64,000 nt of DNA. Origin: a virus. The DNA lies in the IMG/VR virus record IMGVR_UViG_3300034111_000335, positions 1 through 64,000 of that record; one strand, given 5' to 3'. Of this stretch, positions 1,672 through 45,720 are shown one piece after another (within the stretch, counting starts at the first letter, position 1; every line of letters starts with the position of its first letter). A program made the position numbers and the translations under genes. The notes below the pieces were generated by a model. That model was not told the origin of the DNA. It saw only the letters and a list, made by a program, of their open reading frames with translations, and searched no databases.

Positions 1672-2742
1672 TTAGATATAAGTTATTTTGTTCTGGTCAA
1701 AAGATTTTAAGTTGTCGTGCATCCACTTTTCGTCTACAGTATCTTTATAACACAATATGTGAATAGTAGAAGATTGATCAGGACTTAGTCTTAATAGACG
1801 ACCAAAGCGCTGAACGAACTTAGGGGAACCACCAGAATAAGAGTGTAGAATGATAGCATTTTTAAGATTAGGTATATTAATACCTTCGCTTAATTGCTCT
1901 ACACATGATAGTTTAGTGATTTCACCTGTTTTAAAGGCTTCTAAGGGACTATTCTTGTTCTTGGAATGGTGAGAGTCCTTACAGAGTCTTTCAGCTTGAT
2001 CTATGGTGTTTGCAAAGATTATAACTTTCTCCTCTGAGTCTATCTCTGAGATAAGTTTCTTAGCATAATTTTCCTTAGTTTCAAACTGCTTTAAGAAATT
2101 GATTCTTTGAATGGTCTTAAACATCAAATTTCTAGAGTTAGCGTTTTCTATCTCTCTAGTTATCCAGTCATACTGAGCTCTTTCACTGGTCATCCAACCT
2201 TGCTTAGTTTGAATAGTTTTGTTTTTGTTTAAGTCTAAATAGTGTACAAAGATGTGATAGTCGTTAAGAATCTCGTTTTCTACGGCTTTATCTGTCTTAA
2301 ATACGTACTTAATTGGGTAATACTCCATCATAAGTTGACCTTTCTCTGAAGTCAAATACTTAGGAGGAGTACCTGTTAAGCCTAAAATCCTCCCTCTGTA
2401 CTTTAATAAAAAAGGAAGAGTAGTAGCTTTAAGAGAGTGTGCTTCATCTAAGATAAGAATATCATACTCTTCAGGATTGTGTTTTGTAAGAGAAAGATAA
2501 GTAGTGAAGGTAATACGCTCTAAAAGCTCTTCAACCTCAAACTTGACTGCATCTGCTGTCCAAGACTTAAAAATATCTACCTTAGGAGCAACTACAAGAA
2601 CTTTCAAGTGATCAGGTAAGACATTGATATAATCTAATCCTATCTTAGTCTTACCTGCACCTGTCGCTAATTGTAAACCACACCTTTTAAACTGTAAGGC
2701 TTCTTTAAGAGCCTGATGTTGTATTAAATCTCTTGTTATCAT
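1672..2742 (-). CDS. superfamily 2 DEAH helicase (ResIII/UvsW-like)
   Basis: LATGAGKT Walker A, DEAH, TGTP, EGINIP, QRFGRLLR. Confidence 0.92.
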   Translation of the reverse strand: MITRDLIQHQALKEALQFKRCGLQLATGAGKTKIGLDYINVLPDHLKVLVVAPKVDIFKSWTADAVKFEVEELLERITFTTYLSLTKHNPEEYDILILDEAHSLKATTLPFLLKYRGRILGLTGTPPKYLTSEKGQLMMEYYPIKYVFKTDKAVENEILNDYHIFVHYLDLNKNKTIQTKQGWMTSERAQYDWITREIENANSRNLMFKTIQRINFLKQFETKENYAKKLISEIDSEEKVIIFANTIDQAERLCKDSHHSKNKNSPLEAFKTGEITKLSCVEQLSEGINIPNLKNAIILHSYSGGSPKFVQRFGRLLRLSPDQSSTIHILCYKDTVDEKWMHDNLKSFDQNKITYI

Positions 2743-4153: not shown

Positions 4154-4242
4154 TGGTTCTATTGATGGGAATCGAACCCATACTGACATTGCTGTCAACA
4201 GGATTTTAAGTCCTGCGTGTCTACCTATTCCACCACAATAGA
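4154..4242 (-). tRNA. trnL: tRNA-Leu (anticodon UAA), encoded CCA
   Basis: TCTATTG/CAATAGA acceptor stem, CAGGA-CTTAAAA-TCCTG anticodon arm, long variable arm, ATGGG-TTCGATT-CCCAT T-arm, ACCA end. Confidence 0.95.
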
Positions 4243-6304: not shown

Positions 6305-6379
6305 TGGTAGCCCCTGGGTGAATCGAACACACCATCTCTAGGATGAAATCCTATTGTCCTACCATTAGACGAAAGGGCC
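6305..6379 (-). tRNA. trnE: tRNA-Glu (anticodon UUC), encoded CCA, slightly non-canonical stems
   Basis: GGCCCTT/AGGGGCT acceptor stem, TAGG-ATTTCAT-CCTA anticodon arm, TTCGATT T-loop, ACCA end. Confidence 0.85.
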
Positions 6380-10469: not shown

Positions 10470-10499
10470 TTTGAAAAAAATTTTTTTAGTTTACCTTTG
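10470..10499 (+). promoter_or_regulatory. Bacteroidota-type promoter
   Basis: TTTG ... TACCTTTG ending 5 nt before the ATG at 10505. Confidence 0.6.
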
Positions 10500-10504
10500 A
10501 ACCC

Positions 10505-11089
10505 ATGCGAAAATTAAAAAATTTTATTTTTATCTTATCTTTCTTTCTTTCCCTACAAGGGTTCTCTCAGAGAGACTCTGTTTATGTTAAGACCTCTATC
10601 TATTCTTGTGTGTATTCAGAGGTTTTACAACAGCCTAAGCGAGTTTGGTACACTGTTCAATGTCCCTTAGGTTCTTATCCTAGAAAAGGAATGGACTTCT
10701 ACACTAACGATAGTGTAAGAACGAGTGACGGAAAAGATTACGAGGCTAATGTATGGGATAAGGGACATTGTGCTCCAGCAGCTGACTTTAACTGTGATAA
10801 AGATAGACTATGGGCTACCTTCTCTTACCTTAATTGCGTCTTACAGCACGAAAGGTTAAACAGAGGTGCTTGGAGATTCTTAGAAGTAAGAGAAAGAGAG
10901 TTAGCTAAGTCTCAAGTTGTCGAGGTAGAGATTAAAATGATTTACTCTAAGAGCAGTTTAAAATTGCCAACAGGAGCTACAGTCCCTGATGGATTCTTAA
11001 AAACTATTAAATACGGCAAGGTGAAGGAAGTTTATTATTTCAAGAACGAAGATCCAGGTACCACCGATTACTTAAGGTTTAGGAAGTAA
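10505..11089 (+). CDS. secreted DNA/RNA non-specific endonuclease (NucA/EndA family)
   Basis: Signal peptide; WDKGH, TFSYLN..LQ...LN..AW..LE motifs, ATVP. Confidence 0.9.
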   Translation: MRKLKNFIFILSFFLSLQGFSQRDSVYVKTSIYSCVYSEVLQQPKRVWYTVQCPLGSYPRKGMDFYTNDSVRTSDGKDYEANVWDKGHCAPAADFNCDKDRLWATFSYLNCVLQHERLNRGAWRFLEVRERELAKSQVVEVEIKMIYSKSSLKLPTGATVPDGFLKTIKYGKVKEVYYFKNEDPGTTDYLRFRK

Positions 11090-11275
11090 ACGACCAAAGG
11101 TTATATTACTTCGAACTGTTAAGTCTTTATGAGTAAACTGCCACATCTCTCCACTGTCTAGGATGACTGTATATATGGTATCGGTTTCATAACCGTAGTC
11201 TGTTACTAGCCATATTATTCCTTTTCCTTTAGGGGTATTTACTTCTAAGCGATTTGTAGGTTCAAAGATTATCAT
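11072..11275 (-). CDS. small hypothetical protein
   Basis: 67 aa ORF coupled to the upstream transferase gene. Confidence 0.7.
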   Translation of the reverse strand: MIIFEPTNRLEVNTPKGKGIIWLVTDYGYETDTIYTVILDSGEMWQFTHKDLTVRSNITFGRLLPKP

Positions 11276-11943
11276 AGTTGGGTGTCTCTTTTACATAAGT
11301 TTAAGTAAAGTGTTTTGTCTTCAGACCACTCCTTTCCTGTCCACCATTCAAAGCCTTTAAAGTCTGCCTTGTAAGCTGAAGCTAATTCGTAGCCTCCTAA
11401 AAGGTAGACATGATTACATCTAAAGAACTGGGCTATTCTACACTCGAATAACTGAGACACATTACCTAAGGATAGTTTTGGATTTTCATAATCCCACAGA
11501 AACTGGTAAGAGACTAAAGTCCTTCCAGTAGTGTCTTTGTATAGTTTAAAAATATTAGCTCCTACTAGCTTTTCTTCGTAGTAGTAAAGCAGACATTCAA
11601 ATCCTTTAAAATCTTCTAGGTTTATATCTCTTTTAAAATTGTGTTTGTCTGTGTACTTTCTATAAATAGGCTCTAGAAGAGTTAAAACTTCTTCTGATAC
11701 AAAGTGCAGAGAGTATTGTATTTGTTTGCTTAGTTTTTTTACAGTTTTAGTAGGCTCATAGTCTTTTACTCTAAGTCGAACAGACCTTAGATTATACCAG
11801 TAGTCTTGCCACTCTACCCATCCTTCACTTAGGTAGGTTAGATAAGTAGTATCTAAGGCTATTCCTTTGGGGTCAGAGAAGATAAAGTCTTCTTTTGTGA
11901 CCTTACCGTACCCTGTTATATGATCAAAGATAACCTGTATCAT
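11272..11943 (-). CDS. aminoacyl-tRNA-protein transferase-like protein (ATE/Bpt family)
   Basis: L..GW, SVRL....Y.P, Y.KY...H, KLVG, KLSLG....L.E, VYLLGGY...SAYK..F...E motifs. Confidence 0.78.
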   Translation of the reverse strand: MIQVIFDHITGYGKVTKEDFIFSDPKGIALDTTYLTYLSEGWVEWQDYWYNLRSVRLRVKDYEPTKTVKKLSKQIQYSLHFVSEEVLTLLEPIYRKYTDKHNFKRDINLEDFKGFECLLYYYEEKLVGANIFKLYKDTTGRTLVSYQFLWDYENPKLSLGNVSQLFECRIAQFFRCNHVYLLGGYELASAYKADFKGFEWWTGKEWSEDKTLYLNLCKRDTQL

Positions 11944-11980
11944 AACTTTATCATAGCTCTATTATAGCTGTATTATAAAT

Positions 11981-11988
11981 CAAAGATA
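11981..11988 (-). promoter_or_regulatory. -7 promoter element for the transferase operon
   Basis: TATCTTTG on the minus strand. Confidence 0.5.
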
Positions 11989-12026
11989 GTTAATTAAACA
12001 AAAACCACTCTTCTACTTAAGTTTTC

Positions 12027-12056
12027 TTGACTTATTTTTTTAAAGAGCTATTTTTG
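12027..12056 (+). promoter_or_regulatory. Bacteroidota-type promoter
   Basis: TTGACT ... TATTTTTG; the upstream part is repeated at 29460. Confidence 0.55.
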
Positions 12057-12219
12057 TTTTTAGGGGGAGATCTGTGTTTTTCTTGGAGTTACGATTGTTT
12101 TGTGACTAGTTTCTTTAGCCATGTTTTTGGAGGGTTACTAGGTAGGGATTCAGATCTTTCTCCTTTCATGTATTCCCCTACCTAGAACCCTTTTTTAGTT
12201 TATAAACTTCTAAATTTAT

Positions 12220-14667: not shown

Positions 14668-14688
14668 TTTAATTAATACCTTATCTTT

Positions 14689-14717
14689 GCTAGGGGCCTA
14701 AAAACCCCTAGCTTTTT
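14689..14717 (+). terminator. intrinsic terminator
   Basis: gctagggg/cccctagc stem followed by a T-run. Confidence 0.65.
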
Positions 14718-14727
14718 ATACAAAAAC

Positions 14728-17700
14728 ATGAAGTATCTAAGCATACAAACCTTTCAGTGTGGAATATCCGTATCAGGAGCAGCAACCTTTACAGGGGGTG
14801 CTACAATAAACGTACTAGCTCTTAACGGAGCTACAACTTCTTCAGAGGCTAGTTTATTCTTAGGTGCTCATGGTGCTAATGAGGGAGGTCAATTAGTATT
14901 ACAGAAAGGAACAGGTCAAACTTATGCAGCTCACCTAGATAACTATAACGATCAGTTCCGAATTCTTTATGGAACTAATACAGGTTCTACAGGTATAGCA
15001 TTAGCTGTAAGTCTTTCTAATCGTCAGTTAATTCTTCCTGCTTATACTAGTTCAAGTTCTTTTAGCGGAACTGCTGCTGGATATTTGGCTTTTGATTCTT
15101 CAGGTAATATTATTACAACTGCTGTTCCTACTTCAGGAGTAAGTTCTATTATAGCAGGAACAGGCGTAACAGTAAGCTCAGGTACAGGAAACGTAACAGT
15201 TTCTATTGGACAATCAGTAGCTACTTCTGCAACACCTTCTTTTGATCAGATTTTCCTTACTAATAACGGAAACGGAACAAATGTTAAGATAGGTGATGAT
15301 GCTTGGATAGGTGATGTAAATGCTGCCAACACTCTTAGGATAATGGGTCAGCAAAATAATGCTGATGGTTATATTGTTTTTGGTAATAGCGACTTTACAG
15401 CATTAGGAAGAAGCGGAACAGGTAACTTAACTTACGGTGGAAGCACTGTATGGACAGCTGCTACCCTTACCAATCTTAACCAATTAACTAACGGCCCAGG
15501 TTATATAACTTCCGCAGCACTTGCAGGCTATGTTCCTACATCTCGTACGTTAACTATTAACGGTACAAGTTATGATTTAAGTGCAGATAGAACTTGGACA
15601 ATTAACACTGTTGCTTATACTTCTAGATTACAACACCAAGTTAAAGCTGGTGTAGCAATTAATAAGGGTCAAGCAGTTTATGTAACAAGTGCAGATGGAA
15701 CCAATATGATTGTTGGTCTGGCTTCAAACGCTTCTGAAGCCACATCTTCTAAGACTATGGGTCTTTTGGATGCCACAGTCTCTACAAATGGTTTTGCCAA
15801 TGTAGTTACAGAAGGTCTTTTAGCAGGATTAGATACCTCAGCCGCAGGTACAGAGGGTGATCCTGTATGGTTGGGTACCGGGGGTAATTTGATTTATGGT
15901 TTAACCAATAAACCTTACGCTCCTGCCCACTTAGTTTTTATAGGTATCGTAACCCGTAAGAACGCTAATAATGGAGAAATCTTTGTAAAGGTTCAGAATG
16001 GTTTTGAACTTAATGAGATTCATGACGTAGATTTAAAAACAACTGCCCCTATAAACGGGCATTTACTAGGTTATAATGGAACCCTTTGGGTAAATAAAAC
16101 AATTGCAGGTTGGCTAGGATACACTCCTGCTAACGCAAGCGGTACTACTAACTATCTTTCTAAGTTTACAGGATCTACTACTTTAGGTAACTCTCAGATC
16201 TTTGATAATGGAACTAATGTGGCAATTGGCACGTCATCGCCATTTGTAAAACTTGATGTTAGAGGAGAAGCCATTCTTCTTTATAGGGCTGCAACAAATG
16301 CTTATGCTATATATTCAGCTGCAAATAATTCGTATTCTTGGCAGTTTGGTGTGAACAATGGATCTGACTATGTTATTTGGGGTGGAGGATTTACAGGGCT
16401 AGGTACAGAAAGATTCCGAATAGCATCTACTGGAGAAGCTACATTCTCAAGTAGTGTAACGGCAGGGGGAGCAATTTCTACGTCAGGTACAGGGTTAAAT
16501 GCAAGCGTTAGAATAAACAACACAACTGCAAGTACTGGAGTTGATTGGCATTTATATTCCCTTAACAATGGAAACTTTGGATTATATAATAATACAGGTG
16601 GTGCTTATGCTTTTCAGGTAACTTCTGCAGGTAACGTAGGTATCGGTACAACTAGTCCTGTATCTTCGCTTAGTGTAGTTGGTAAAACAAATTTGGGAGG
16701 GCAAGCGTCAGGATTTTATGTTACTCCTTCTACACTTCACATTGCCAGTTCAACTGTTTCTCAGATATCTTTTGAAGATTATATAGTTACAGCAGCTATA
16801 GCTTTGGCTAATAATACATTTGCATTTGGTCATCAAAACGCATCTCCATCGTACGAATTTAAGCATAGTAATACATACAATGGAAACTACGCAACTACAG
16901 GTACTACTTTTGCAAGATTTAACCCAACGACAAGTTATATAAGTTCGGGCAATATTGGTATAGGTACTACAAGTCCAACAGGCAAGCTAGATATTGTACC
17001 AAGTGCTCAGAATGCTATTAACATTTCTCGTGCAGGAGGCTATGCTTCTTTTTATAGTAGTAATGATTTAGTTTTTGAAACAGATAGTGTCTTCTACTTT
17101 GGTGTATATACTCCAAGATTATTTTCTGTAAACGGTAGTTTTTATACTACAGTAGCAGGTAGTGTTGGAATAGGAACTTCTAGTCCTTCCCAGAAGTTAC
17201 ATGTAGTAGGTGCTTCTATACTTGCTAATAACTCTTCTATAAACCCAGACACTTATGTAAATACAGTTATTGCTGGTGCTATAGGAACTGTTGGCGGATG
17301 GGGATTAAGTTCAGCAATTGGAGGAAATGCAGGTACTGGACATAGTTGGGCTATTGGAACTAATGGTGATAATCTATATATGGGTTATTCCAATGGTAGT
17401 TCTAGTAACTCAATGTTGACATTTTTGCAAGTAGATGATAGTACTCGTAATGTATTTTTAGTACCGCAATCAGGAAACGTTGGAATAGGTAATGCTTCTC
17501 CTAGTTATAAATTAGATGTAAGTGGTGCATTAAGAGCAACTGGAACAGTATACAGTGACAATGGATCTTTAGCTGGTGCATTAAATCTTGGTCAGGTAGT
17601 TAGTATTGGTTCTTCTTTTGGTAGTTACGCAAATCTTATATTCACCATGCACAATGGTGGAGGATTTAGTGACATAATGAAGTTGCAGGGTAATGGAAAT

Positions 17701-18642
17701 GTAGGTATAGGTACTAATAGCCCATCAGGTAGAGTACATATTAAATCCTCAGGATTAAATACATACCCGCTCCTTATTCAAAGAGCTGCGAATACAAATA
17801 ATATCTTCTATGTTGTTGAAACATCGGGAGGAGATGGACAGGTCGTTATTGAAAACAGCGGAGGAGGAGCAGCAGTGCAGCTACATTCTAATGGAACAAG
17901 TTATTTTAATGGAGGTAACGTTGGTATTGGTACTACTACCCCTTCTACTTTACTAGATGTAAGCGGAGTTATCACAGCTACAGGCGGTAACAGTACCAAC
18001 TGGAATACTGCGTATGGCTGGGGTAATCATAGTTCAGCAGGTTATGTTCCTCAAGCAAGAACTCTTACTATTAATGGAACTAGCTATGACCTAAGCGCAA
18101 ATAGAAGCTGGACAATATCAGCAGCAACTCCAGGAGGATCTGATACACAATTCCAATACAATAGTTCTGGATCTTTAGCAGGAGCCTCTGCTTTGACTTA
18201 TAACTCTACTACTAACAGAGTAGGTATTAATCAAGCTTCTCCAGGATATGACTTAGATGTAAACGGACAAGTAAGAGTACAAGATAAACTTAGAGTAGGA
18301 ACTGGTAACGGAGTAGTACACATGTCTTCTACGGCTACTATTAATCCTAGTGCTACTACTGTTGTATGGGCTCAAACCGTAAGCGTAGGTATGTGTGCCT
18401 TTATTGAGTACTACATTTTAAACAACAATTCACTTACAGACCAAAGAGCTGGTACAATCATGGTTACCTGGAATCAATCAGGAACGCCTACAATCACTCA
18501 CACAGAAACAACTACCCCTGATATAGGGTCAACTACCACTGTGAACTTTACAAGCTCTCTAGTGGGCTCAGATGCAAGAATTAACGCAGTAAACTCAAGT
18601 GCCAATCCTTACACGATGGTAATGAGTTATAAATATTTCTAA
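14728..18642 (+). CDS. long tail fibre protein (GNVGIGT repeats)
   Basis: 1304 aa; about 8 GNVGIGTxxP-type repeats; RTLTINGTSYDLSA twice. Confidence 0.85.
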   Translation: MKYLSIQTFQCGISVSGAATFTGGATINVLALNGATTSSEASLFLGAHGANEGGQLVLQKGTGQTYAAHLDNYNDQFRILYGTNTGSTGIALAVSLSNRQLILPAYTSSSSFSGTAAGYLAFDSSGNIITTAVPTSGVSSIIAGTGVTVSSGTGNVTVSIGQSVATSATPSFDQIFLTNNGNGTNVKIGDDAWIGDVNAANTLRIMGQQNNADGYIVFGNSDFTALGRSGTGNLTYGGSTVWTAATLTNLNQLTNGPGYITSAALAGYVPTSRTLTINGTSYDLSADRTWTINTVAYTSRLQHQVKAGVAINKGQAVYVTSADGTNMIVGLASNASEATSSKTMGLLDATVSTNGFANVVTEGLLAGLDTSAAGTEGDPVWLGTGGNLIYGLTNKPYAPAHLVFIGIVTRKNANNGEIFVKVQNGFELNEIHDVDLKTTAPINGHLLGYNGTLWVNKTIAGWLGYTPANASGTTNYLSKFTGSTTLGNSQIFDNGTNVAIGTSSPFVKLDVRGEAILLYRAATNAYAIYSAANNSYSWQFGVNNGSDYVIWGGGFTGLGTERFRIASTGEATFSSSVTAGGAISTSGTGLNASVRINNTTASTGVDWHLYSLNNGNFGLYNNTGGAYAFQVTSAGNVGIGTTSPVSSLSVVGKTNLGGQASGFYVTPSTLHIASSTVSQISFEDYIVTAAIALANNTFAFGHQNASPSYEFKHSNTYNGNYATTGTTFARFNPTTSYISSGNIGIGTTSPTGKLDIVPSAQNAINISRAGGYASFYSSNDLVFETDSVFYFGVYTPRLFSVNGSFYTTVAGSVGIGTSSPSQKLHVVGASILANNSSINPDTYVNTVIAGAIGTVGGWGLSSAIGGNAGTGHSWAIGTNGDNLYMGYSNGSSSNSMLTFLQVDDSTRNVFLVPQSGNVGIGNASPSYKLDVSGALRATGTVYSDNGSLAGALNLGQVVSIGSSFGSYANLIFTMHNGGGFSDIMKLQGNGNVGIGTNSPSGRVHIKSSGLNTYPLLIQRAANTNNIFYVVETSGGDGQVVIENSGGGAAVQLHSNGTSYFNGGNVGIGTTTPSTLLDVSGVITATGGNSTNWNTAYGWGNHSSAGYVPQARTLTINGTSYDLSANRSWTISAATPGGSDTQFQYNSSGSLAGASALTYNSTTNRVGINQASPGYDLDVNGQVRVQDKLRVGTGNGVVHMSSTATINPSATTVVWAQTVSVGMCAFIEYYILNNNSLTDQRAGTIMVTWNQSGTPTITHTETTTPDIGSTTTVNFTSSLVGSDARINAVNSSANPYTMVMSYKYF

Positions 18643-18685
18643 TATATAGATTATATACATTGTTGGATAGTGAAAACAATAAAAA

Positions 18686-21600
18686 ATGGCAAACGAATTT
18701 AAAGTCAAAAACGGTCTTATAGTAATAGGAGACCTAACCACATCAGGAACTATTACTATTAATGGTGCTCTTGCAGCTACACAATCTTGGGTTACATCTC
18801 AAGCTTATTTAACTTCTGCTAGTTTAAGCGGATATGCTACACAGTCTTATGTGACTAGTGCATTAGCTGCCTTAGTAGATGCAGCTCCTGCAGCATTAGA
18901 TACGCTTAATGAACTTGCAGCAGCACTTGGAGATGATGCTAACTTCTCTACTACTATCACAAATAGTATAGCAGCTAAACAAGCCCAACTTAATGGAACT
19001 GGTTTAGTAAGAATGTCAGGAACAAGTGTAAGTTATGATAATACTACTTACTTAATTTCTAATTTTGGAAATATAGAAGGGGAGCATGGTTATGGGTATC
19101 CTTCAAGTGACGGTTGGTATAAAATTGCAGAGATTGTTTTAACCTCATCATGCCAATCTTTTAATCTTTGGGGAGAATATAGAGACACGGGTTACTTTGA
19201 CAACTCTCATTATAGGATTCATATTACTGCAAGAGCAGAGTGTGACTTTCCAACTAACAATGAAAGTCATGCTATTAATGTAAACATGTACGGAAGTAGT
19301 ACTAATGAAACTTACTTTAATAATAATGTAAGAGTTGTTCTTACTTCATCTTCTTCTAATTATAGAAAATACGAATTACAATACTATAGAGCGACTTGGG
19401 ATACAGGTAGTTGGAACTTACAAACTTTAGGTTGGACTACATACACAACTTCTCAAACTGCAGGAACTCCTACAGGAACTCCTAGAGTCTATTATATCTC
19501 TAAGTTTGTTGCAGATAACATTTACGCAGCTAATAAAATCTCTATAGGAACAACTTATAGTGGATTTGCTGCAAACATTGCAGGAACTACTTATGTTATT
19601 GGAGCTTCAGTTTGGGTTAACGATGGCTACGGTATTTCAAATGCTAGTAGTGGGGGTACAGGATTTTTTCCTTACAGTGATGGAACTTTAGTTTTTAACT
19701 CAGTTAACTCTGAAAAAATGCGTGTTGCTTCTAGTGGCAATGTCGGAATTGGGACTAATAGTCCAGGATATAAACTTGAAGTAAATGGTGGAGCTACTGG
19801 TAATAACATTGCTAGATTTACAACAGGAGGAACAGGCGGAGGCACCAGAGGTCTTACTGTGTACTCTGACAATTCTCAAGTTAAACTGCAAGTCACTGAC
19901 AATGCCGGAAGTCAAGGAACTTGGGCATTCTTAAACTTAAATCCAGATGGAGGAAATGTAGGAGTAGGAACTACCTCTCCCGACAGTAGGTTTACTGTAA
20001 AAGGGGATAACGCACTAGTAGATGTTCAATCTACTGCTGACGGACAAACTATTGGATTTTTAGCTAGATACCTGAATAGTGCAACTTTGGGGGGAGCCTT
20101 TAGGTATACTACAGGAGATGCTCAATTATATATTGATAACTTTTTCCAAGGAAATAACGGAGTTTACAGTGATATAAACATAAGAAACTGTGATACTGGT
20201 GGAAATCTTATTAATCGCATAAAGATTAAAGGGTCTAGTGGTAATGTAGGAATTGGTACTTCTAGTCCTGGTAACATACTGACTGTAAACGGTGACACAA
20301 GACTTGTAACTGGAACTACTCAAGGTTTATTCGCCTACGATGCTCCCTCTGGTGGTGCTTTTATTTGGTCATTAACAAGATACACTGATACAAATGCAAA
20401 CGATCTAAACGTTAATACAAGAAGCGGGTTTGGAATACGTACAGGAGTAGAATCTTTAACTAATTCAGGTCACCAATTCTATGTAACTTCTGTAGGCAAT
20501 GTAGGTATAGGAACAACTGCTCCTACACATAGACTTACTGTAGCTGGAGGAAATGTTTTGATGTTTCCTTCGGATAATACAAGACAACTAAGTTTCTTTA
20601 ATGATTCTTACGGCATAACTGCTTCAAGCGGTCTTGAACTAATTACAGGAGATTATATAAGATTTAGACAAGGTAGTACAGAATTAGCAAGATTAACAAC
20701 AACAGGATTAGGTGTTGGAACTTCTACTCCTTCTGAAAAATTTCACGTTAGTGGTGCTGCTATATTTGATGGAGGATCAGGTAACTCTTCTACAGATGCT
20801 GTAGTTTACATAACTAAGTCAAATAATAATGACTGGGGATTATATGTAAATGCTTCTGGTCTTGACTATGGTATGTATACTAGGGTATCTCCTTCTGCAG
20901 GATATGCTATTGGTGTAAATAATGGAACTAATTGGACTACTAGAATTACTGGAGATGGTAGAATTTATTTAAATGAGAAAGATACAATAGCTTCTTATGA
21001 TACATGGCTTCGTTTAAATGAATCTGGACATTACGGATCTGGTGTATACACTCCAGGAGTAATGAGGGCTGATGGAGGATTTAACGTAAGTGGAAGTCAA
21101 GTATGGCACGCAGGTAATGATGGAAGTGGAAGTGGATTAGATGCTGATTTACTTGATGGACAAAATTCTACTGAGTTTCTACGCTTATTATCTGGAGGTG
21201 CTGAAGCAAGTTTGGATAGTTATACAGACAATGGATTTAGATCAGTAAGTTTTGCTGGGCACTCTCAACACTTGTTATCATGGAATGCTGGTGGTTCTAC
21301 AGGAACAGTCCAACAATTGTTTCATTATGGTACACCTAATAACGGATGGAGAATTAGAAATAAAACTGATAACACTTCTTGGAGTGATTGGGGATATGTT
21401 GTTATGGCTAGTTCTAATCAGGGACTTATCTCTGGAACTATTGCTACTCAGTCGTGGGTAGGGTCTCAGAGTTACGCTACTACATCTTATGTAACAACCC
21501 AAATTAATAACCTAATTAACGGAGCACCAGGTGTACTAGATACACTTGATGAATTAGCTGCTGCTTTAGGAGATGATGCAAACTTTGCAACTACAGTAAC

Positions 21601-22108
21601 TAATAGTATTGCAGGTAAGGTTTCTAAGACTGGTGATACTATGACTGGTGCTCTCACCATTCAGAATGGAGTATCTGCAACTTGGGATTATATGACCCTT
21701 GAGCATCCTGGTCCTCACGCTAGAATAAACTTAGGCAATGCTGAGAACGGATTTTTAATTGCTCACGAAGGAACAACTACTGCAACGTTTGCTACAAATG
21801 GTAACCTAACAATTACTGGAGCATTGATTGAAACTTCATCAATCAAAGTAAAAGAAAATGTAAAAACAAGTGAGGGAAATTTAGAAAAGGTAGTAAATTT
21901 GAGACCAGTCACTTACAATAAGATTGGGTCTCAGACTACAGAACTAGGTCTTATTGCAGAAGAAGTTGCTGAGGTGTACCCAGAATTTGTACAATATGAT
22001 GAGAATGGAGAACCTATAGGGGTTCACTACTCTCGCTTAACTGCTGCTCTTATAGGTGCAGTAAAAGAATTAAACGAACAATTACAAGAACTAAAGAGAA
22101 ATAAATAA
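18686..22108 (+). CDS. tail fibre with C-terminal intramolecular chaperone (peptidase S74)
   Basis: LDTL(N/D)ELAAALGDDANF twice; GNVGIGT repeats; SS..VKEN...LRPVTY...GLIAEEV. Confidence 0.88.
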   Translation: MANEFKVKNGLIVIGDLTTSGTITINGALAATQSWVTSQAYLTSASLSGYATQSYVTSALAALVDAAPAALDTLNELAAALGDDANFSTTITNSIAAKQAQLNGTGLVRMSGTSVSYDNTTYLISNFGNIEGEHGYGYPSSDGWYKIAEIVLTSSCQSFNLWGEYRDTGYFDNSHYRIHITARAECDFPTNNESHAINVNMYGSSTNETYFNNNVRVVLTSSSSNYRKYELQYYRATWDTGSWNLQTLGWTTYTTSQTAGTPTGTPRVYYISKFVADNIYAANKISIGTTYSGFAANIAGTTYVIGASVWVNDGYGISNASSGGTGFFPYSDGTLVFNSVNSEKMRVASSGNVGIGTNSPGYKLEVNGGATGNNIARFTTGGTGGGTRGLTVYSDNSQVKLQVTDNAGSQGTWAFLNLNPDGGNVGVGTTSPDSRFTVKGDNALVDVQSTADGQTIGFLARYLNSATLGGAFRYTTGDAQLYIDNFFQGNNGVYSDINIRNCDTGGNLINRIKIKGSSGNVGIGTSSPGNILTVNGDTRLVTGTTQGLFAYDAPSGGAFIWSLTRYTDTNANDLNVNTRSGFGIRTGVESLTNSGHQFYVTSVGNVGIGTTAPTHRLTVAGGNVLMFPSDNTRQLSFFNDSYGITASSGLELITGDYIRFRQGSTELARLTTTGLGVGTSTPSEKFHVSGAAIFDGGSGNSSTDAVVYITKSNNNDWGLYVNASGLDYGMYTRVSPSAGYAIGVNNGTNWTTRITGDGRIYLNEKDTIASYDTWLRLNESGHYGSGVYTPGVMRADGGFNVSGSQVWHAGNDGSGSGLDADLLDGQNSTEFLRLLSGGAEASLDSYTDNGFRSVSFAGHSQHLLSWNAGGSTGTVQQLFHYGTPNNGWRIRNKTDNTSWSDWGYVVMASSNQGLISGTIATQSWVGSQSYATTSYVTTQINNLINGAPGVLDTLDELAAALGDDANFATTVTNSIAGKVSKTGDTMTGALTIQNGVSATWDYMTLEHPGPHARINLGNAENGFLIAHEGTTTATFATNGNLTITGALIETSSIKVKENVKTSEGNLEKVVNLRPVTYNKIGSQTTELGLIAEEVAEVYPEFVQYDENGEPIGVHYSRLTAALIGAVKELNEQLQELKRNK

Positions 22109-22109
22109 G

Positions 22110-25100
22110 ATGGCTATTTTATTAACCGGAACTACAATTGGTGGACACAGTGCCATTCACGCTGGAAACCTAGCAACACACGGTATTGTTACAACTAGTA
22201 ATATCGGGAGTTATGCTTTAACTAGTCTTCCATCACATAATCACGATGATCGTTACTATACAGAAAGTGAATCTGATTCTAGATATTTATCTATAAATGG
22301 GGGAACTGTTACAGGTTGGGCTTTATTTACTGCTTCTACTCAAGGTACTGCTATAGTTAGAGCAACACAACAAGATACTTCTGCTGGTTATTATTTATTT
22401 CAAGGTATTACTGGTAGTTCAGAAGTATTTAGAGTTGAAAGAAGTGGAAGACTAAACTCAGCAGAATATATTTATTCTTATGGATATAGAGGTAATGGTA
22501 ACGTAGGAGGTACAGGTTCTGCTTCATGGCACCCAGATGGAGCTTATATTGGTAGTACTATGTGGCAGTATGGTGCTCAGTATAAGAATAATACGGGTAT
22601 TTATGATGTAAGCGAATTTAAACTTAATGCTGGTCCTACTCTTAGTATTTATAATAGTAGAAACTTGAGTGTTAGGGCTCTAGATAATAATGCTGATGTT
22701 GGAATTTTAGGACAACAGTCTGGGGGAGGTTTTGCTTTTCAAATTTATGGAACTGGTTCAAGTTATGGTTTTTTAAATGGAATATGGGCAGCTTGGGATA
22801 TTAGAAAAGCTGTAAATGGAGCTATGTATATGAATGATAACGACAGTTATTATTTACAAACAAACAGCACTTCTAACTTTGTTGCTCTTAACATCCAGGG
22901 TAATGCAGTAGTTCATGCAGGTAACATTGGGTCTCAGTCAGTAAGTAATTCAAACCATTTAAATTCAACTAGAGATACTCCAAGCGGTAAACTGCAATAT
23001 TGGGATGCACCTGGTCTTGGTATTGATGAGGCTCCTTCTGGTGATTGGCACAACACAATAAGAATGGGTCACGGCTCACCCTTATCTTATTATAGTAATA
23101 CATTAGCTATTCGTATGACTGGTTCTGGTGTTGGCGATATATACACGCAAACTATTATGAACGGTAATAGACAAGGTTGGAAAAAACATTGGAATGATGG
23201 TAACCACGGAAGTGGGTCAGGACTAGATGCTGACCTTTTAGATGGTCAACAAGGTTCATATTACCAACCTGCATCTTCAGCCATTACTACTTCTAATATT
23301 GGGTCTCAGAGTGTAAACTTTGCTAATAGTTCAACATCTGCAGCATATCTAAATTATACAGGGGTTGGTGGAACACAATTAAACGCAAACACATTTAGTT
23401 ATGGTCGTGCATCAAACTATTATAGCACTGCTCAAATTTTAAATTCTCCAGAGAATGCATATGCGTCATTGTACAATTTTGGTGGTGATACTCCCAGTGC
23501 ATTGTCTTTGCAGTTGTTTGCTTCTGTAAATCATAATGACACATCTTCAACAAGAAACTTGTGGTTTAGAGTTGGAAACAATTTAGGTTTTCAAAATGAC
23601 TGGAAACAAATAATCCATTCTGGAAGCATTGGATCTCAGAGTGTATCTTACGCTACTACTGCAGGTGCATTGAGTTCAATGAACATATCTCAGTTCACCA
23701 ATAACTCTGGTTACATTACAGGATATACAGAAACAGATACTTTAAATTCAGTAACTGGTAGAGGTAATACAACTTCTAATAGTGTAAGATTTGGTAATCA
23801 TGTAGATTTAAGTCCAACAGGTAGTGCATTTAGATTTTATGATGGAAGCACTTTCAGAGGAGGTTTTGGTTTAGATAGTTGGGGACACGCAGGTAGTGAT
23901 GCTAACTTGGTATTATATGTAAATGGAGATAATACATTATTCTTCTCAACATCCGGTACAAAAAGAGCGTATATTAATAGTGCGTCTTTTTATTCTTTTG
24001 TTGCAATAAAAGAAAATGGTAATCAAGTTCTTCATGCAGGTAACTACACTTCTTATTCTCCTTCTTTAACAGGTAGTGGTGCTTCAGGAACATGGGGTAT
24101 AAATGTAACAGGAACTGCAGCAAGAGCAACAAGAGCTAATGGTAATTTTTATATAGATGATAACTATGGTAATACTATAGTAGGATTATATAATTCTACA
24201 ATTTTGCAGGGTGTGTTTGCAATGGGAGATGCTTACAAATTAACTGCAGGTGGTGGAGCAGGAAATCTTTATGGTCTTGCTTGGTCACATCCTAATGCTG
24301 GAGGTGTAGCTTCAAACCTGAATACACACGGTCTTCTTGTGATGGAGAATGGTACATTCTTAGCAGCTATCTCTGGTTCAATTAGAGCAAGAGATGATAT
24401 GCGTGCTCCAATCTTCTACGATTCTAATGACACTACTTACTATTTAGATCCTAATAGTAATTCATATTTATCTACACTTCGTGTTGCTAATGCTACAAGT
24501 GGAGTTTCACTTCATGTTGGACTTGGTTCTACTCACGGAGTTTACACAGCAGATAACGATAGAAAGTATTTAGTTGTATCAGCAACATATTACCCACACA
24601 TGGCCTTGGTTGCCACTAGTTCAAACAATAGCAATCACGGAGCAGTATTTTCTTTTGTGGGTTCTGAAAGTGGTGCAGCTAGACAGTGGAATATGGGTAT
24701 TGCAAATAGCAACCCATTTGTGTTTAGTATTGGATATAATAGGACTGGAGACAACAATCCACACTACGGCATTGGTGACGGATGGCATGGAGATGATAAT
24801 CACCACGCACGTTTAAGTATTGACAGAGACGGCAATACTAAGATTCGTGGTATGTTGTATATTAATGGTACAAGTGGTGGAATATCTACAGGTAGTGCAG
24901 TAATTCACGCAGGCAATATTGGCTCACAATCTGTATCGTATGCAAGTACTGCTGGAGCGTTAAGCTCAATGAATATCTCTCAGTTTAGTAATAACTCAGG
25001 ATACTTTGTAAGTAGTACAGCCAATACTGTTTCGGTAAATCAAATAGCATTTTCTACAACAAACTACGACTTTACTTTAGCTCCTAGACTATCTATTGGT

Positions 25101-28100
25101 TCTATGTCAATCAAGCTGTGGGACAACTACTTTAATAGTAGCGGATTAGGTGTAGACTACGGCTCTCTGTTGGATATCTATGGAAGAGGCGGTCACGTAC
25201 ATAGTCAGTTCTATATGGATGCAGGCGGAGGTTTATTCTACAGAATGTCACCATACGCTAGTGGATGGACTTCTTGGGCTTCAATATGGACTAGTAGTAG
25301 TTTGACTAACTTAAATCAGTTAACAAATGGTCCTGGTTACATTACATCTTCTGCATTAAGTGGCTATGCTACTCAAAGTTACGTAAACTCTCAGGGATTC
25401 TTAACCAGTGTACCTGCACAATCTCAACTCATAAGTCCTAATGGGGCAACTGTTGTTGCAGCAGATTCAGCAATGCCTAATGCAGGACATTCGTTTATAC
25501 ATAGTTTGGCTTTAGGTCCTGGTGGAAATGATGGTCACATACTTGGTATGTCTTGGGCAGGTACAACTAGTGTTTATGGTGCTCAGATTTTCTTAGACAC
25601 AGATCCTAATGACATCATGGCAATTAGGTCTAGAAGTAATGCTGGAGTTTGGACATCTTGGAAAACTGTTTATCATAATGGCAACTTTACTGATAATTCA
25701 TCAAATTGGAATACCGCATATAGTTGGGGTAACCACGCATCAGCTGGATACTTAACTTCTTTACCGTCCCATAACCATGACGATAGGTATTATACCGAAA
25801 CGGAATCTGATGGTAGATTCCAACCCTTAGAGAATCAAAGACTTTCTACTGGTAATTCCCCAACATTTGCAAATGTTTATGCTAGTGAGTGGTTTAGAAA
25901 CTATGGTAATCAGGGTATTTACAACCAAACATACGGAACTCACTTCTATTCACTTTCAAGTGGAGCTTGGGCTATTACAGGAAGTGGAGGTGCTGTTGAA
26001 ATTCAGTTTAGAAGTAACCACCAAAGTACTCTTCGTGGGTATGTTTATGCAGATACTAGCAACAACATTGGTTTCCTAAACAACGCAGGTAACTGGAGTT
26101 TGAGAACCGATTCTAGTAGAGATACTCAGATTTATGGAGCACTAACCGTAGGTAGTGGTACATCGGCTGATATTTATATGACAGATACGGATGAGACTAC
26201 TAGACGTATACACACAAACAGCGGTAGAATAGGATTTTTAAATTCTTCTAGTAACTGGGGAGCTTATTGTGATAATACTGGTAATTGGTTTAGTGATCAT
26301 TCTATGCGTGCTCCAATCTTTTATGACTCACAGGATACCAACTACTATGTAGACCCTAACAGTTTATCTAGACTTGGTACAATGCAGATTGATAGAATTG
26401 GTGTTGGACAAGCTGTAGACAACGGGTATAGAATCATTACATCTGGAGACATCTACCTTAATGCTAATGGTAATGGATGGGCTGAAGGTGTATGGAAACA
26501 ACGCAGAGGAGGTTCCACGTACTATGATGTAATTGACTCTGGAAACATCGGTAGTCAATCTGTAAACTATGCTGCAACTGCTGGATCTGCTCCTGCCAAT
26601 GGCGGTAACTCTAGTACAGTAGGCGGATTTGGTGCAGGATCTTTCTTTAGAGACCTTGGTTTTGAGGGCGGTGGTGCTAATGCAAATACTATTGCTGAAA
26701 CTAGATCAGCATTTACATATTCATCTGGTTCTCCATGGACTGGCCCTTTAGCGTATTTTGGTGCATCAGGTTATGGGTTACAACTAAACGCAACATATCA
26801 AAGCGGTGTTAATATTTCATACAGAACAAGAAATGGTGATAATGCAACGTGGAACTCGTGGAGAGAGTTTATTCACTCTGGCAACATTGGGTCTCAGTCT
26901 GTATCATACGCAAGTACGGCAGGTACTGCAAATGCAGTAGCATGGACTAACGTATCTAGCAGACCGACAGCTTTATCTCAATTTAGTAATGATTTGGGTA
27001 ACTATGGTGGCTTCTTAACTTCTTTACCTGCACATGATCATGATAGACTATTCTTAACAGATTCTAGAGGAGCGTCTAGAGCACCTTCTTACTACGATCA
27101 AAGATATGCTCAGTGGGATTTTCAGAATACCTCAGATACGGGTGCAGGAGGAGACGGTTGGCATGGTCTACTTACAGTAGCTAAATGGTCTTCTTATGAT
27201 CCTTCTCATAGACAAGAACAACTTGCTTTCACTGGTGATGAATTAAAACGTAGAACTGCTACAAGTGACTCTGCTTGGGGATCTTGGAAAACAATTATAG
27301 ATTCAGGAAACATTGGTAGTCAGTCAGTAAGTAATGCTGCAACTGTAGGTGGCTATACTCCTTCTGGTAGTGTAGGTGCAAACACAGTAGTTATCAGAGA
27401 TGCTAACAACTACATCTATGCTCACTACATTAACTCAAACGTATCTGAGTCTGAGAATCCAACTATTAACTCATTCTACACAAGTAATGGAGATGGTTGG
27501 TTAAGAAAGTCAAGTGTTGCTCACGTTAAGTCTCAGTTAGGATTAGGGTCTTTAGCTTATCTATCTAGTTTAAATGAATTGGATTGGTATGGGTATCTTA
27601 CAAGCGAGAACTGGAATACTTATTGGACTAGTAATAAACTAAGAGTTGCTTCAGTTTCTGGAGCTACAGGAACTGGTCGTCCCCCAACTAGTGTACATAA
27701 TTTTGGCAGTTTGCTTTCTTATGGGACTTCATCAGGAGACGCATTTCAAATGTATTTTCCTGACAATGCTGGTAACAGTATTGCTAACAGTAGAAAACTT
27801 CACTATAGAACTGGTCAGAGTGTTAGTGCTGGTCCTACTGGTAGTGGTTGGTGTGATTGGAGAACAGTTGTTGACATGGTGGGTGATACTTTAACTATTG
27901 TTGAAGGTGCTACTCCTAAAATTGTTGTCCGAGGATCAACAGGATATGGTAATCCATCATCAGGCTCTATTGAATTAGTAGGGGATGCAGATGGTGGAAA
28001 CACTCAGTCATACAGATGGATAAGTACTGCTCCTGATTGGGGTGGCCAAGAATTTAGACTAGAAAGAAAGGTTAATAACGCTTTTCAGCTTGTAGGAAGA

Positions 28101-28460
28101 GTTCCTAAAAACACCAATAACCTTGAGTGGCAAGGTACTATTGTACAAGGTTTATCTGACTCAAGAGTTAAGACTAATGTTGTTAGTATGACAGAGGGTC
28201 TTGACAAGATTGATCGGATTAGACCTGTAACATTTGATTGGGTACCTACTGAGAATGTATCTGATAGAGAAGGAGCAGACTTTGGTTTTATTGCTCAAGA
28301 ACTTGAAGAGGTATTACCAGAAGTAGTACATACTAGAGGTGATGGATACAAAACAGTTATGTACGAAAAAGTAGTACCTGTATTGGTTCAAGCAATGAAA
28401 GAACAGCAAGCAATTATTGAGGCTCTTAAGGCTGAGATAGAACTCCTAAAGAACAAGTAA
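22110..28460 (+). CDS. giant modular tail fibre with C-terminal peptidase S74 chaperone
   Basis: 2116 aa; IGSQSV seven times; HNHDDRYY twice; SDSRVKTN...RPVTFDW...GFIAQEL. Confidence 0.88.
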   Translation: MAILLTGTTIGGHSAIHAGNLATHGIVTTSNIGSYALTSLPSHNHDDRYYTESESDSRYLSINGGTVTGWALFTASTQGTAIVRATQQDTSAGYYLFQGITGSSEVFRVERSGRLNSAEYIYSYGYRGNGNVGGTGSASWHPDGAYIGSTMWQYGAQYKNNTGIYDVSEFKLNAGPTLSIYNSRNLSVRALDNNADVGILGQQSGGGFAFQIYGTGSSYGFLNGIWAAWDIRKAVNGAMYMNDNDSYYLQTNSTSNFVALNIQGNAVVHAGNIGSQSVSNSNHLNSTRDTPSGKLQYWDAPGLGIDEAPSGDWHNTIRMGHGSPLSYYSNTLAIRMTGSGVGDIYTQTIMNGNRQGWKKHWNDGNHGSGSGLDADLLDGQQGSYYQPASSAITTSNIGSQSVNFANSSTSAAYLNYTGVGGTQLNANTFSYGRASNYYSTAQILNSPENAYASLYNFGGDTPSALSLQLFASVNHNDTSSTRNLWFRVGNNLGFQNDWKQIIHSGSIGSQSVSYATTAGALSSMNISQFTNNSGYITGYTETDTLNSVTGRGNTTSNSVRFGNHVDLSPTGSAFRFYDGSTFRGGFGLDSWGHAGSDANLVLYVNGDNTLFFSTSGTKRAYINSASFYSFVAIKENGNQVLHAGNYTSYSPSLTGSGASGTWGINVTGTAARATRANGNFYIDDNYGNTIVGLYNSTILQGVFAMGDAYKLTAGGGAGNLYGLAWSHPNAGGVASNLNTHGLLVMENGTFLAAISGSIRARDDMRAPIFYDSNDTTYYLDPNSNSYLSTLRVANATSGVSLHVGLGSTHGVYTADNDRKYLVVSATYYPHMALVATSSNNSNHGAVFSFVGSESGAARQWNMGIANSNPFVFSIGYNRTGDNNPHYGIGDGWHGDDNHHARLSIDRDGNTKIRGMLYINGTSGGISTGSAVIHAGNIGSQSVSYASTAGALSSMNISQFSNNSGYFVSSTANTVSVNQIAFSTTNYDFTLAPRLSIGSMSIKLWDNYFNSSGLGVDYGSLLDIYGRGGHVHSQFYMDAGGGLFYRMSPYASGWTSWASIWTSSSLTNLNQLTNGPGYITSSALSGYATQSYVNSQGFLTSVPAQSQLISPNGATVVAADSAMPNAGHSFIHSLALGPGGNDGHILGMSWAGTTSVYGAQIFLDTDPNDIMAIRSRSNAGVWTSWKTVYHNGNFTDNSSNWNTAYSWGNHASAGYLTSLPSHNHDDRYYTETESDGRFQPLENQRLSTGNSPTFANVYASEWFRNYGNQGIYNQTYGTHFYSLSSGAWAITGSGGAVEIQFRSNHQSTLRGYVYADTSNNIGFLNNAGNWSLRTDSSRDTQIYGALTVGSGTSADIYMTDTDETTRRIHTNSGRIGFLNSSSNWGAYCDNTGNWFSDHSMRAPIFYDSQDTNYYVDPNSLSRLGTMQIDRIGVGQAVDNGYRIITSGDIYLNANGNGWAEGVWKQRRGGSTYYDVIDSGNIGSQSVNYAATAGSAPANGGNSSTVGGFGAGSFFRDLGFEGGGANANTIAETRSAFTYSSGSPWTGPLAYFGASGYGLQLNATYQSGVNISYRTRNGDNATWNSWREFIHSGNIGSQSVSYASTAGTANAVAWTNVSSRPTALSQFSNDLGNYGGFLTSLPAHDHDRLFLTDSRGASRAPSYYDQRYAQWDFQNTSDTGAGGDGWHGLLTVAKWSSYDPSHRQEQLAFTGDELKRRTATSDSAWGSWKTIIDSGNIGSQSVSNAATVGGYTPSGSVGANTVVIRDANNYIYAHYINSNVSESENPTINSFYTSNGDGWLRKSSVAHVKSQLGLGSLAYLSSLNELDWYGYLTSENWNTYWTSNKLRVASVSGATGTGRPPTSVHNFGSLLSYGTSSGDAFQMYFPDNAGNSIANSRKLHYRTGQSVSAGPTGSGWCDWRTVVDMVGDTLTIVEGATPKIVVRGSTGYGNPSSGSIELVGDADGGNTQSYRWISTAPDWGGQEFRLERKVNNAFQLVGRVPKNTNNLEWQGTIVQGLSDSRVKTNVVSMTEGLDKIDRIRPVTFDWVPTENVSDREGADFGFIAQELEEVLPEVVHTRGDGYKTVMYEKVVPVLVQAMKEQQAIIEALKAEIELLKNK

Positions 28461-28461
28461 C

Positions 28462-28491
28462 TTGACAATTTAACTAATAGCATTATATTTG
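28462..28491 (+). promoter_or_regulatory. Bacteroidota-type promoter
   Basis: TTGACA ... TATATTTG. Confidence 0.65.
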
Positions 28492-39612: not shown

Positions 39613-39919
39613 AAAACTATCCTATATATCAGCAGAACTTGAATGGGCAGAACAACGCTTAACTGAGTGGAGAGCATATATAGATAACAATCCTATCAAT
39701 GGATTGAAAGACAGAATTGAATGGAAGCCTACAGCCAAAGGAGGAACAATGCCTATGGTTATTGCTAGCCAAGAATCACAAATCAAATCTCTTAGAGATA
39801 CTATGAAAGAATACTTAGCTTTACTTGAAGTAGTAGATCGTCTTAGAGAGAAAGAAGAACAAAAAGCAGAAGCCCGTGGATCTCAAGAGATTAACGGTAA
39901 GATGAAACAATTTAGTTAA
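39602..39919 (+). CDS. hypothetical protein, possibly terminase small subunit
   Basis: Helical protein coupled to the terminase large subunit gene. Confidence 0.55.
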   Translation: MATKKLSYISAELEWAEQRLTEWRAYIDNNPINGLKDRIEWKPTAKGGTMPMVIASQESQIKSLRDTMKEYLALLEVVDRLREKEEQKAEARGSQEINGKMKQFS

Positions 39920-41931: not shown

Positions 41932-41953
41932 CTAAAACTAAATAACAAATACA

Positions 41954-44407: not shown

Positions 44408-44440
44408 GAGATACAAATAAGTAATAGATTATAGCACTAA

Positions 44441-44477
44441 AGTAGGGGGTTTTTGAGCCTAAAAATCCCCTATTTTA
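44441..44477 (+). terminator. intrinsic terminator
   Basis: gtagggggttttt/aaaaatcccctat stem followed by a T-run. Confidence 0.55.
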
Positions 44478-44564
44478 ACTTATTGTGCATATCGTAACCT
44501 AATTTATTAATCTCTTGTGTTAATTTTTTAAAATATTACTTTTGAATTAAACCAAACTAACCTT

Positions 44565-45689: not shown

Positions 45690-45720
45690 AACATAAAAAC
45701 AAAAATAATAAATTACTACT

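Follow-up and report, generated by a model that had tools for sequence, protein, structure and literature searches.

A Cys-less ATE1/Bpt-type transferase gene of phages and the barrel-protein gene that overlaps it

In bacteria, Bpt transfers Leu from Leu-tRNA to N-terminal Asp or Glu and so creates N-degrons that are recognised by ClpS, and in eukaryotes ATE1 transfers Arg. To our knowledge, the enzymes described so far as adding amino acids from tRNA to proteins are ATE1, Bpt and Aat; all are cellular and all belong to N-degron proteolysis. What an enzyme of this kind would do in a phage is the question raised by a 223-residue open reading frame (ORF) in the virus record IMGVR_UViG_3300034111_000335, of which we analysed the first 64 kb (positions 1 to 64,000, called the window here). 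The record is complete, with 118,886 bp, 406-bp direct terminal repeats and 36.2 % G+C. A first-pass annotation had read the ORF as a Bpt/ATE-like transferase that tags host proteins, for example defence factors, for degradation or modifies the phage's own proteins, possibly with a phage tRNA as donor. What that annotation had observed is confirmed; its interpretation as N-degron hijacking is partly supported, and the hijacking itself is unproven. As judged from sequence and predicted structure, the ORF is a genuine gene whose product falls in the ATE1/Bpt branch of the aminoacyl-tRNA-dependent transferases; it is a viral variant of an already known enzyme kind, and its target is probably a new one. 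Its family has kept the catalytic and tRNA-end residues of its homologues, has lost the residues that read acidic acceptors, is found in viruses, and is coupled to the gene of a 67-residue barrel protein.

Identity and distribution of the transferase family

The protein matched Pfam ATE_C (PF04377) over residues 102-197 (hmmscan E 4.3e-5, 24.6 bits, cut-off 25). The domain passed the cut-off, at 25.5 bits, in a six-frame search of the genome, and a precomputed PF04377 match is present in many relatives. The NCBIfam arginyltransferase model NF002344 aligned residues 53-205 with model positions 63-228 of 241 (E 1.1e-6), and a PDB search with a profile of 34 relatives returned only ATE1 chains at E ≤ 0.001, the best being yeast ATE1 (E 8e-7). 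For comparison with Bpt we used eight canonical proteins of 235-259 residues (L093-L100) from sampled genomes of one bacterial class. By hhalign, positions 21-207 of the family profile aligned with positions 31-235 of 240 in Bpt (97.8 % probability, E 1.2e-12), and the probability in global mode was 98.3 %. These matches place the ATE/Bpt-fold motifs noticed in the first pass beyond chance. Of the two ATE domains, ATE_C was thus detected, and ATE_N (PF04376) gave no Pfam match at E ≤ 10; the L/F-transferase Aat domain Leu_Phe_trans (PF03588) gave none at the same threshold. Against PHROGs the protein had only a chance-level match (E 0.12).

The predicted structure agrees with this assignment. 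Foldseek searches with the AlphaFold model (pLDDT 89.3, pTM 0.85) ranked human, yeast and K. lactis ATE1 at the top (E 3.5e-9 to 1e-7; human ATE1, E 3.5e-9, TMq 0.67), followed by L-PGS/MprF and FemX. With VIA-align, only ATE1 chains were aligned over the whole length of the model, with 199-214 of 223 residues running from residue 1 to 221-223. Human ATE1 gave Z 15.2 and a root-mean-square deviation of 4.5 (214 residues aligned, model residues 1-223), and K. lactis Ate1 gave Z 13.3-13.7 (210-212 aligned). The matches to other enzymes span about 150 residues of the GNAT core. The best full-length structural match is therefore ATE1, as expected of an ATE/Bpt-type enzyme.

Word-indexed searches recovered 134 relatives at E ≤ 0.001, mostly of 221-234 residues, on contigs of up to 127 kb and with 37-74 % identity to the window copy; an exhaustive search gave 139 clusters at 50 % identity. 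In IMG/VR at least 514 stretches were confirmed as carrying the transferase. By comparison, 185,579 species genomes (one genome per species) held seven loci, all in metagenome-assembled genomes (MAGs), the closest of them on a 117,852-bp contig that also bears the barrel gene. ATE_N was searched for in five MAGs with transferase relatives and was not found. The family is thus almost purely viral, and the 134 relatives and 139 clusters indicate strong purifying selection. Twenty distant members that we inspected all lack the Cys cluster, and most share an N-terminal F-x-H motif. A tblastn search of 50,697 GenBank phage records, a collection that may lack records of or near this genome, found no copy of the transferase, and a literature search turned up no publication on a phage-encoded ATE/Bpt transferase or on a link between phages and ClpS or N-degrons. 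In IMG, members carry the automatic label 'arginyl-tRNA--protein-N-Asp/Glu arginylyltransferase', which probably misstates their specificity.

Active-site residues kept and lost

Conservation was counted over 229 family proteins, 142 close and 87 distant. The roles of residues in K. lactis Ate1 (klAte1) were taken from passages of PMC9351520, with PDB chain numbering equal to the numbering of that paper plus 4, and the Bpt equivalents from its main text and our own alignments. The catalytic Lys304 of klAte1 corresponds to K192, kept in 228 of 229 proteins, and its Tyr303 to Y191, kept in 215 (a further 12 have Trp). Tyr173 and Trp260, described in PMC9351520 as binding the tRNA 3' end, correspond to Y97 (142/142 close relatives) and W150 (141/142 close relatives, 199/229 overall). 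H101, the equivalent of His178, is kept in 110 of the 142 close relatives.

The donor pocket is mixed. In the account of PMC9351520 it is formed by Ser255, Ser273, Glu277 and Tyr289 in ATE1, which uses an Arg donor, and by Ala, Ala, Gln and Leu in Bpt, which uses Leu; Glu277 is the charged residue that klAte1 requires to bind the Arg donor, and is Gln in the Leu-transferring Bpt. The phage family has Ala or Ser at the first two positions, Glu at the third and Val at the fourth, so that only the Glu is ATE1-like and the other three are Bpt-like. This Glu, E167 in the window copy, is kept in 212 of 229 proteins (142/142 close, 70/87 distant).

The residues that read the acceptor have fared differently. 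According to PMC9351520, klAte1 needs Arg80 to bind N-terminal Asp or Glu (R80E is inactive), and a change of Tyr25 to Phe nearly abolishes arginylation of N-terminal Glu. The Arg80 equivalent in the window copy is V43, and the position holds Ile (106), Val (29), Thr (6) or Leu (1) in the close relatives; among the distant relatives neither Arg nor Lys is one of its seven commonest residues. The GFRRSG motif of Bpt and ATE1 aligns with GW[I/V][P/E]W, in which Arg81 is replaced by Glu or Pro. The Tyr25 equivalent is mostly Phe (125/142 close) and the H-x-C-x-Y motif reads H-x-x-x-[F/Y], although the confidence of the alignment is low at both places. Finally, an 8-residue deletion in the hhalign alignment takes out the CxxCxxC stretch of Bpt, and residues 1-116 contain no Cys, the first being residue 117, which agrees with the earlier remark that the N-terminal Cys cluster is absent. 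Taken together, the alignments indicate that the catalytic and tRNA-end machinery is intact and that the reader of acidic N-termini has been lost. The transfer of Leu to N-terminal Asp or Glu, as first proposed, is not supported, given the state of the Arg80 equivalent and E167, which stands in place of the Bpt Gln.

The overlapping barrel gene and the readings of the locus

Neighbouring ORFs were called and clustered in 80 viral loci plus the window. An ORF of about 65 residues lies directly downstream of the transferase gene, on the same strand, in 71 of these 81 loci. tblastn recovered the same gene in nine of the ten loci missed by ORF calling (two copies are cut by a contig end), and the one remaining locus ends within the transferase gene. 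In 80 of 80 testable loci, then, the barrel gene is directly downstream and overlaps the transferase gene, its start and the transferase stop sharing 4-38 nucleotides (ATGA in the window). The outer neighbours vary: genes of at least 12 families precede the pair and genes of at least 10 follow it. The barrel protein is better conserved than the enzyme (62-77 % versus 37-74 % identity to the window copies), with a mean column identity of 70 %.

The AlphaFold 2 model of the barrel protein (pLDDT 89.1) has six strands. Its fold matches are weak (KorB-C, Tudor and KOW domains at Z 5.6-6.0, all generic small barrels), Foldseek gave no match at E ≤ 0.001, and we found no sequence relative in Pfam, PHROG or PDB; its relatives in the Atlas are viral hypothetical clusters alone. 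Among the best 80 of 323 viral loci with a barrel gene, the transferase is upstream in 61 and not in 19. In five complete genomes from the latter set the transferase was absent genome-wide by a search that was positive in three known carriers. The barrel gene followed the transferase gene in all testable loci but also occurs without it; such a one-way dependence would be expected between a modifier that is optional and a target or partner that is fixed.

Other couplings were seen around both genes. Different overlapping genes, of 222 residues (L083:5187-5855) and 167 residues (L084:5668-6171), stand downstream of two distant viral transferase relatives (31 % identity), and therefore coupling to a downstream gene may recur with different partners among distant relatives. 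Where a phage has the barrel gene but no transferase, the gene that comes next often overlaps it and encodes a basic, Lys/Ser-rich protein of 94-118 residues (cluster 163; for example L175:1682-1981 and L162:1679-2035).

From these observations we infer an activity, a donor, an acceptor and a role for the barrel protein. The transferase would take the aminoacyl group from a host-charged tRNA and form an amide bond on an acceptor amine, at a site (Lys192/Tyr191) that corresponds to Lys304/Tyr303 of klAte1. As for the donor, the ATE1-type Glu kept in its pocket (E167) makes a basic amino acid, Arg or Lys, more likely than Leu. The acceptor would not be read in the manner of ATE1 and Bpt, that is, through an N-terminal Asp or Glu, since the family has lost the Cys cluster that binds metal and has a hydrophobic residue in place of the Arg that binds the acceptor. 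The enzyme would work with the co-translated barrel protein, which may be the acceptor itself or a subunit that presents the acceptor. We consider it about an even call that the gene encodes a catalytically competent (as predicted), virus-only, minimal member of the ATE1/Bpt group that does not read Asp or Glu N-termini and acts with or on the barrel protein. The more specific idea of a virus-only protein aminoacylation, in which a residue from host aminoacyl-tRNA, probably a basic one, is added to the barrel protein or to a target that it presents, is put forward tentatively. Of the two roles first suggested for this enzyme, modifying the proteins of the phage itself agrees better with the tight link to the barrel gene than tagging host defence factors does.

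Several observations weigh against this account. The Pfam score of the transferase protein itself is 0.4 bits below the gathering cut-off, and the VIA-align scores are tied (MprF, Z 15.7; FemX, 15.4; human ATE1, 15.2), so that the fold by itself does not tell whether the acceptor is a protein or lies in a lipid or the cell wall. The donor call is weak, since the pocket resembles Bpt and not ATE1 at three of its four positions (A/S, A/S, V). On the side of the barrel protein, copies with and without a transferase are alike, with no distinguishing residue. No transferase-barrel fusion was found (0 of 280 family proteins match the barrel profile), nor any longer or fused form of the transferase among proteins of 392-2000 residues, the latter being weak evidence. 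Viral relatives of the transferase at 27-31 % identity have no barrel gene, two of them having other overlapping downstream genes and three having none, and the coupling may have been inherited from one ancestor. A prediction of the transferase-barrel complex scored 0.00 against a mark of 0.32, which neither supports nor contradicts binding.

An N-degron writer of altered specificity is an unlikely alternative. Such an enzyme would place Arg or Lys on some class of N-termini, in proteins of the host or of the phage; processing by Aat and ClpS/ClpAP of the host would follow, and the barrel gene would be a mere conserved neighbour. The ATE1-type Glu of the donor pocket is consistent with this idea, and in bacteria Aat renders N-terminal Arg and Lys destabilising. 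Among 41 sampled genomes of Chitinophagaceae, the candidate host family, 37 have ClpS and 30 have Aat, and the two genes stand side by side. Furthermore, ClpS-like genes are very rare in GenBank phages (tblastn with one query matched 3 of 50,697 records), yet of 11 near-complete records of related phages with the transferase module, our own genome counted, 3 have a ClpS-like gene of 84-87 residues immediately behind that of the helicase. It is also present on a MAG contig that bears the module, and was found in none of five relatives without the transferase. On the other hand, this phage has no ClpS: the sole signal in its genome, of 17.8 bits, falls within the helicase ORF, and tblastn with the ClpS of a relative was negative. 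The Pfam match of the relatives' protein (residues 5-67 of 84 on model positions 4-66 of 80) leaves no N-terminal extension, which ClpS requires to hand substrates to ClpA, and a phage ClpS of this form may therefore block the pathway rather than drive it. Because the three phages that carry it are of one synteny type, its acquisition may have been a single event. The host of the phage is suggested at most, and the invariant overlap with the barrel gene is left unexplained by this alternative. The link to ClpS is thus confined to a subclade of relatives, whose ClpS lacks the extension, and is absent from the phage studied here. We also observed that an overlapping gene of about 90 residues comes after the ClpS-like gene of the relatives, and that in the window the helicase homologue (1672-2742, minus strand) is followed, in the place of ClpS, by a 299-residue ORF with a weak HNH match.

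It is improbable, in our judgement, that the enzyme is a Bpt-like writer that adds Leu, possibly from the phage tRNA-Leu(UAA), to host N-terminal Asp or Glu for destruction by ClpS/ClpAP. Its nearest sequence relatives are Bpt and ATE1, its donor pocket has small or hydrophobic residues at three of four positions, as Bpt does, and the candidate host family has ClpS (37/41) and Aat (30/41). The phage also encodes tRNA-Leu(UAA), as had been noted, which with tRNA-Glu(UUC) makes up the whole tRNA set of the 118,886-bp genome. However, none of the 142 close relatives has Arg or Lys at the position of Arg80, 125 of them have Phe at that of Tyr25 (in a low-confidence part of the alignment), and an invariant Glu stands where Bpt has Gln189. 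Codon usage offers an ordinary explanation of both tRNAs, since TTA accounts for 42 % of the Leu codons of the phage, more than any other, and GAA ranks second among all its codons. Five near-complete carriers of the module have no tRNA in common: one has Glu, Met and one odd call, one has seven, one (a complete genome) has none, one has Asn and one has Arg, and Leu(UAA) occurs among the carriers only in this phage. No co-occurrence with a particular tRNA gene was thus seen in these related phages, and the first-pass idea of the phage tRNA as donor is not supported. Classical tagging of Asp and Glu with Leu from the phage tRNA is the least supported version of the N-degron idea. As a separate observation, ARAGORN reported tRNAs whose anticodon begins with A, Asn(att), Phe(aaa) and His(atg), in the relatives G073/G071 (L103, L105, L108), and one tRNA with a two-base anticodon loop in L106; these may be odd tRNAs or miscalls.

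We find it similarly hard to credit that the enzyme aminoacylates something other than a protein N-terminus, for instance lipids, precursors of the cell wall or small molecules, in the manner of MprF, FemX or the Sba18/Sbb17 peptide synthases. The GNAT core matches MprF (Z 15.7, 155 residues), L-PGS (15.3) and FemX (15.4, 147 residues) as well as it matches ATE1, Sba18 and Sbb17 follow at Z 13.6-13.8, and the ATE-type acceptor residues are lost. But these matches, which for FemXAB and MprF types lie at Z 14.1-15.7 over about 150 residues of the Fem/GNAT core, come without a sequence match in Pfam or in the PDB profile search; sequence profiles match ATE1 and Bpt alone, and ATE1 is the only structure to cover the whole length, the N-terminal 30-50 residues included. 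Judged by eye, the translation contains neither a signal peptide nor a long hydrophobic stretch. A protein without catalysis, serving as a scaffold or as an aminoacyl-tRNA binder that might sequester or sense charged tRNA, would agree with the loss of the Cys cluster and the acceptor Arg, but is very improbable because the Lys/Tyr of the catalytic site, the Glu of the donor pocket and the residues at the tRNA end are all kept, being invariant in the 142 close relatives.

Genomic setting and comparison with known systems

The features of the locus are collected in Table 1. The first-pass annotation had placed the transferase gene under a candidate dedicated promoter. Such a promoter is plausible: the transferase-barrel pair diverges from the plus-strand gene at 12220, and by this orientation the spacer between them must contain the promoter of the pair. 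The consensus matches within the spacer are not above chance. A sigma-70 scan gave 5 sites where 3.6 ± 2.0 were expected, and a terminator scan found none. The motif TAnnTTTG, which we take to be the Bacteroidota -7 consensus, occurs 77 times in the window against 74.5 expected. Genome-wide, it lies 10-60 nucleotides upstream of 16 of 152 same-strand ORF starts, compared with 3.7 ± 1.9 for random positions, a count that AT-rich spacers may inflate. Examples are at 10492-10499 (+), 11988-11981 (-), 14682-14689 (+), 28484-28491 (+) and 44537-44544 (+).

Table 1. Coordinates of the features discussed, in the window unless a locus of another genome is named.
Feature	Position	Strand	Basis or remark
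Cys-less mini ATE/Bpt-type aminoacyl-tRNA-dependent transferase gene, 223 residues, ATG start	11272..11943	-	ORF, Pfam, NCBIfam, hhalign, AlphaFold 2
Gene of 67-residue all-beta SH3/Tudor/KOW-like barrel protein	11072..11275	-	ORF; ATG overlaps transferase stop codon (ATGA)
Divergent intergenic spacer, 276 bp	11944..12219	.	between transferase gene and plus-strand gene at 12220
Candidate promoter TTTATA-18-TATGAT	11979-11950	-	consensus match, not above chance
Candidate promoter TATCTTTG (TAnnTTTG match)	11988-11981	-	consensus match, not above chance
tRNA-Leu(UAA)	4154-4242	-	
tRNA-Glu(UUC)	6305-6379	-	
DNA/RNA non-specific endonuclease	10505-11089	+	Pfam Endonuclease_NS, E 5.5e-19; hydrophobic, signal-peptide-like N-terminus
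Terminase large subunit, portal, major head protein	39919-47244	+	PHROGs
ClpS-like genes of relatives	L113:1489-1743 (G074), L114:1489-1749 (G072), L115 (G078); MAG contig G001:C153:4446-4634		

The phage is a freshwater crAss-like phage. Nineteen freshwater or lake DNA sequencing runs contain at least half of the sampled sequence words from it, and no RNA run was among the runs that matched these words. The best isolate match of its terminase is to Leptolyngbya phage Lbo-JY46 (39.6 % identity). Identity is 27-30 % with the terminases of Cellulophaga phi4:1 and crAss-like phages, and Flavobacterium phages also have related ones. A Bacteroidota host, with Chitinophagaceae as the candidate family, is suggested only by the TAnnTTTG enrichment, the crAss-like, Cellulophaga and Flavobacterium terminase relatives and one MAG bin. 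Elsewhere in the window, the endonuclease gene is convergent with the barrel gene, their 3' ends overlapping by 18 nucleotides, and four very large ORFs (1304, 1140, 2116 and 1693 residues) lie downstream of tail-fibre-like genes, at 14728-28460 (+) and 55632-60713 (+).

A large and strongly conserved viral family of this kind would extend tRNA-dependent protein aminoacylation to viruses, probably with a new target. If true, viral aminoacylation would give this chemistry acceptors of a new kind and a part in phage infection, apart from the classical Asp/Glu N-degron route, and the small size of the enzyme (223 residues) together with a defined candidate partner makes the question directly testable.

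Among known systems, the Fem-type enzymes (FemX/FemA, MprF/L-PGS and Sba18/Sbb17) share the Fem/GNAT core with the phage enzyme, at Z 13.6-15.7 over about 145-170 residues. They show no sequence-level match to it, leave its N-terminal part uncovered, and use lipids, peptidoglycan precursors or antibiotic scaffolds as acceptors. A second comparison is with ATE_C proteins of Chitinophagaceae (L089-L092, 234-253 residues; in 5 of 41 genomes), which likewise have no Cys cluster and match ATE_C only, ATE_N being undetected in the one genome in which it was searched for. They differ from the phage family in scoring only 8.6-17.9 bits with its profile, compared with 23-49 bits for canonical Bpt, in reading G[YW]YRM in place of GFRRSG, with one Arg kept, in having Gln, Cys or Leu at the Glu277 position, and in their cellular gene context; they look like an undescribed Bacteroidota variant of Bpt.

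Canonical bacterial Bpt is closer. It resembles the phage enzyme in size class (235-259 residues), in its two-part layout, in the hhalign match at 97.8-98.3 % over nearly the whole length, and in small donor-pocket residues at two positions. The phage enzyme differs from it in lacking H-x-C-x-Y, CxxCxxC and the Arg pair of GFRRSG, in having Glu at the Gln189 position, and in its neighbourhood, since Bpt adjoins aat in the loci that we fetched and the phage gene adjoins the barrel gene. Eukaryotic ATE1 (8TZV, 7WFX/7WG1, 7TIF, 8E3S) is unlike the phage enzyme in being about 500 residues long with a variable C-terminal domain, which the 223-residue phage enzyme does not have, and in the Cys cluster, Arg80 (Val or Ile in the phage family), Arg81 (Glu or Pro) and Tyr25 (mostly Phe). 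Although the two are only 16-20 % identical in sequence, ATE1 is the best Foldseek match and aligns over the whole length, and its Lys304/Tyr303, Glu277, Trp260, Tyr173 and His178 are K192/Y191, E167, W150, Y97 and H101 of the phage enzyme.

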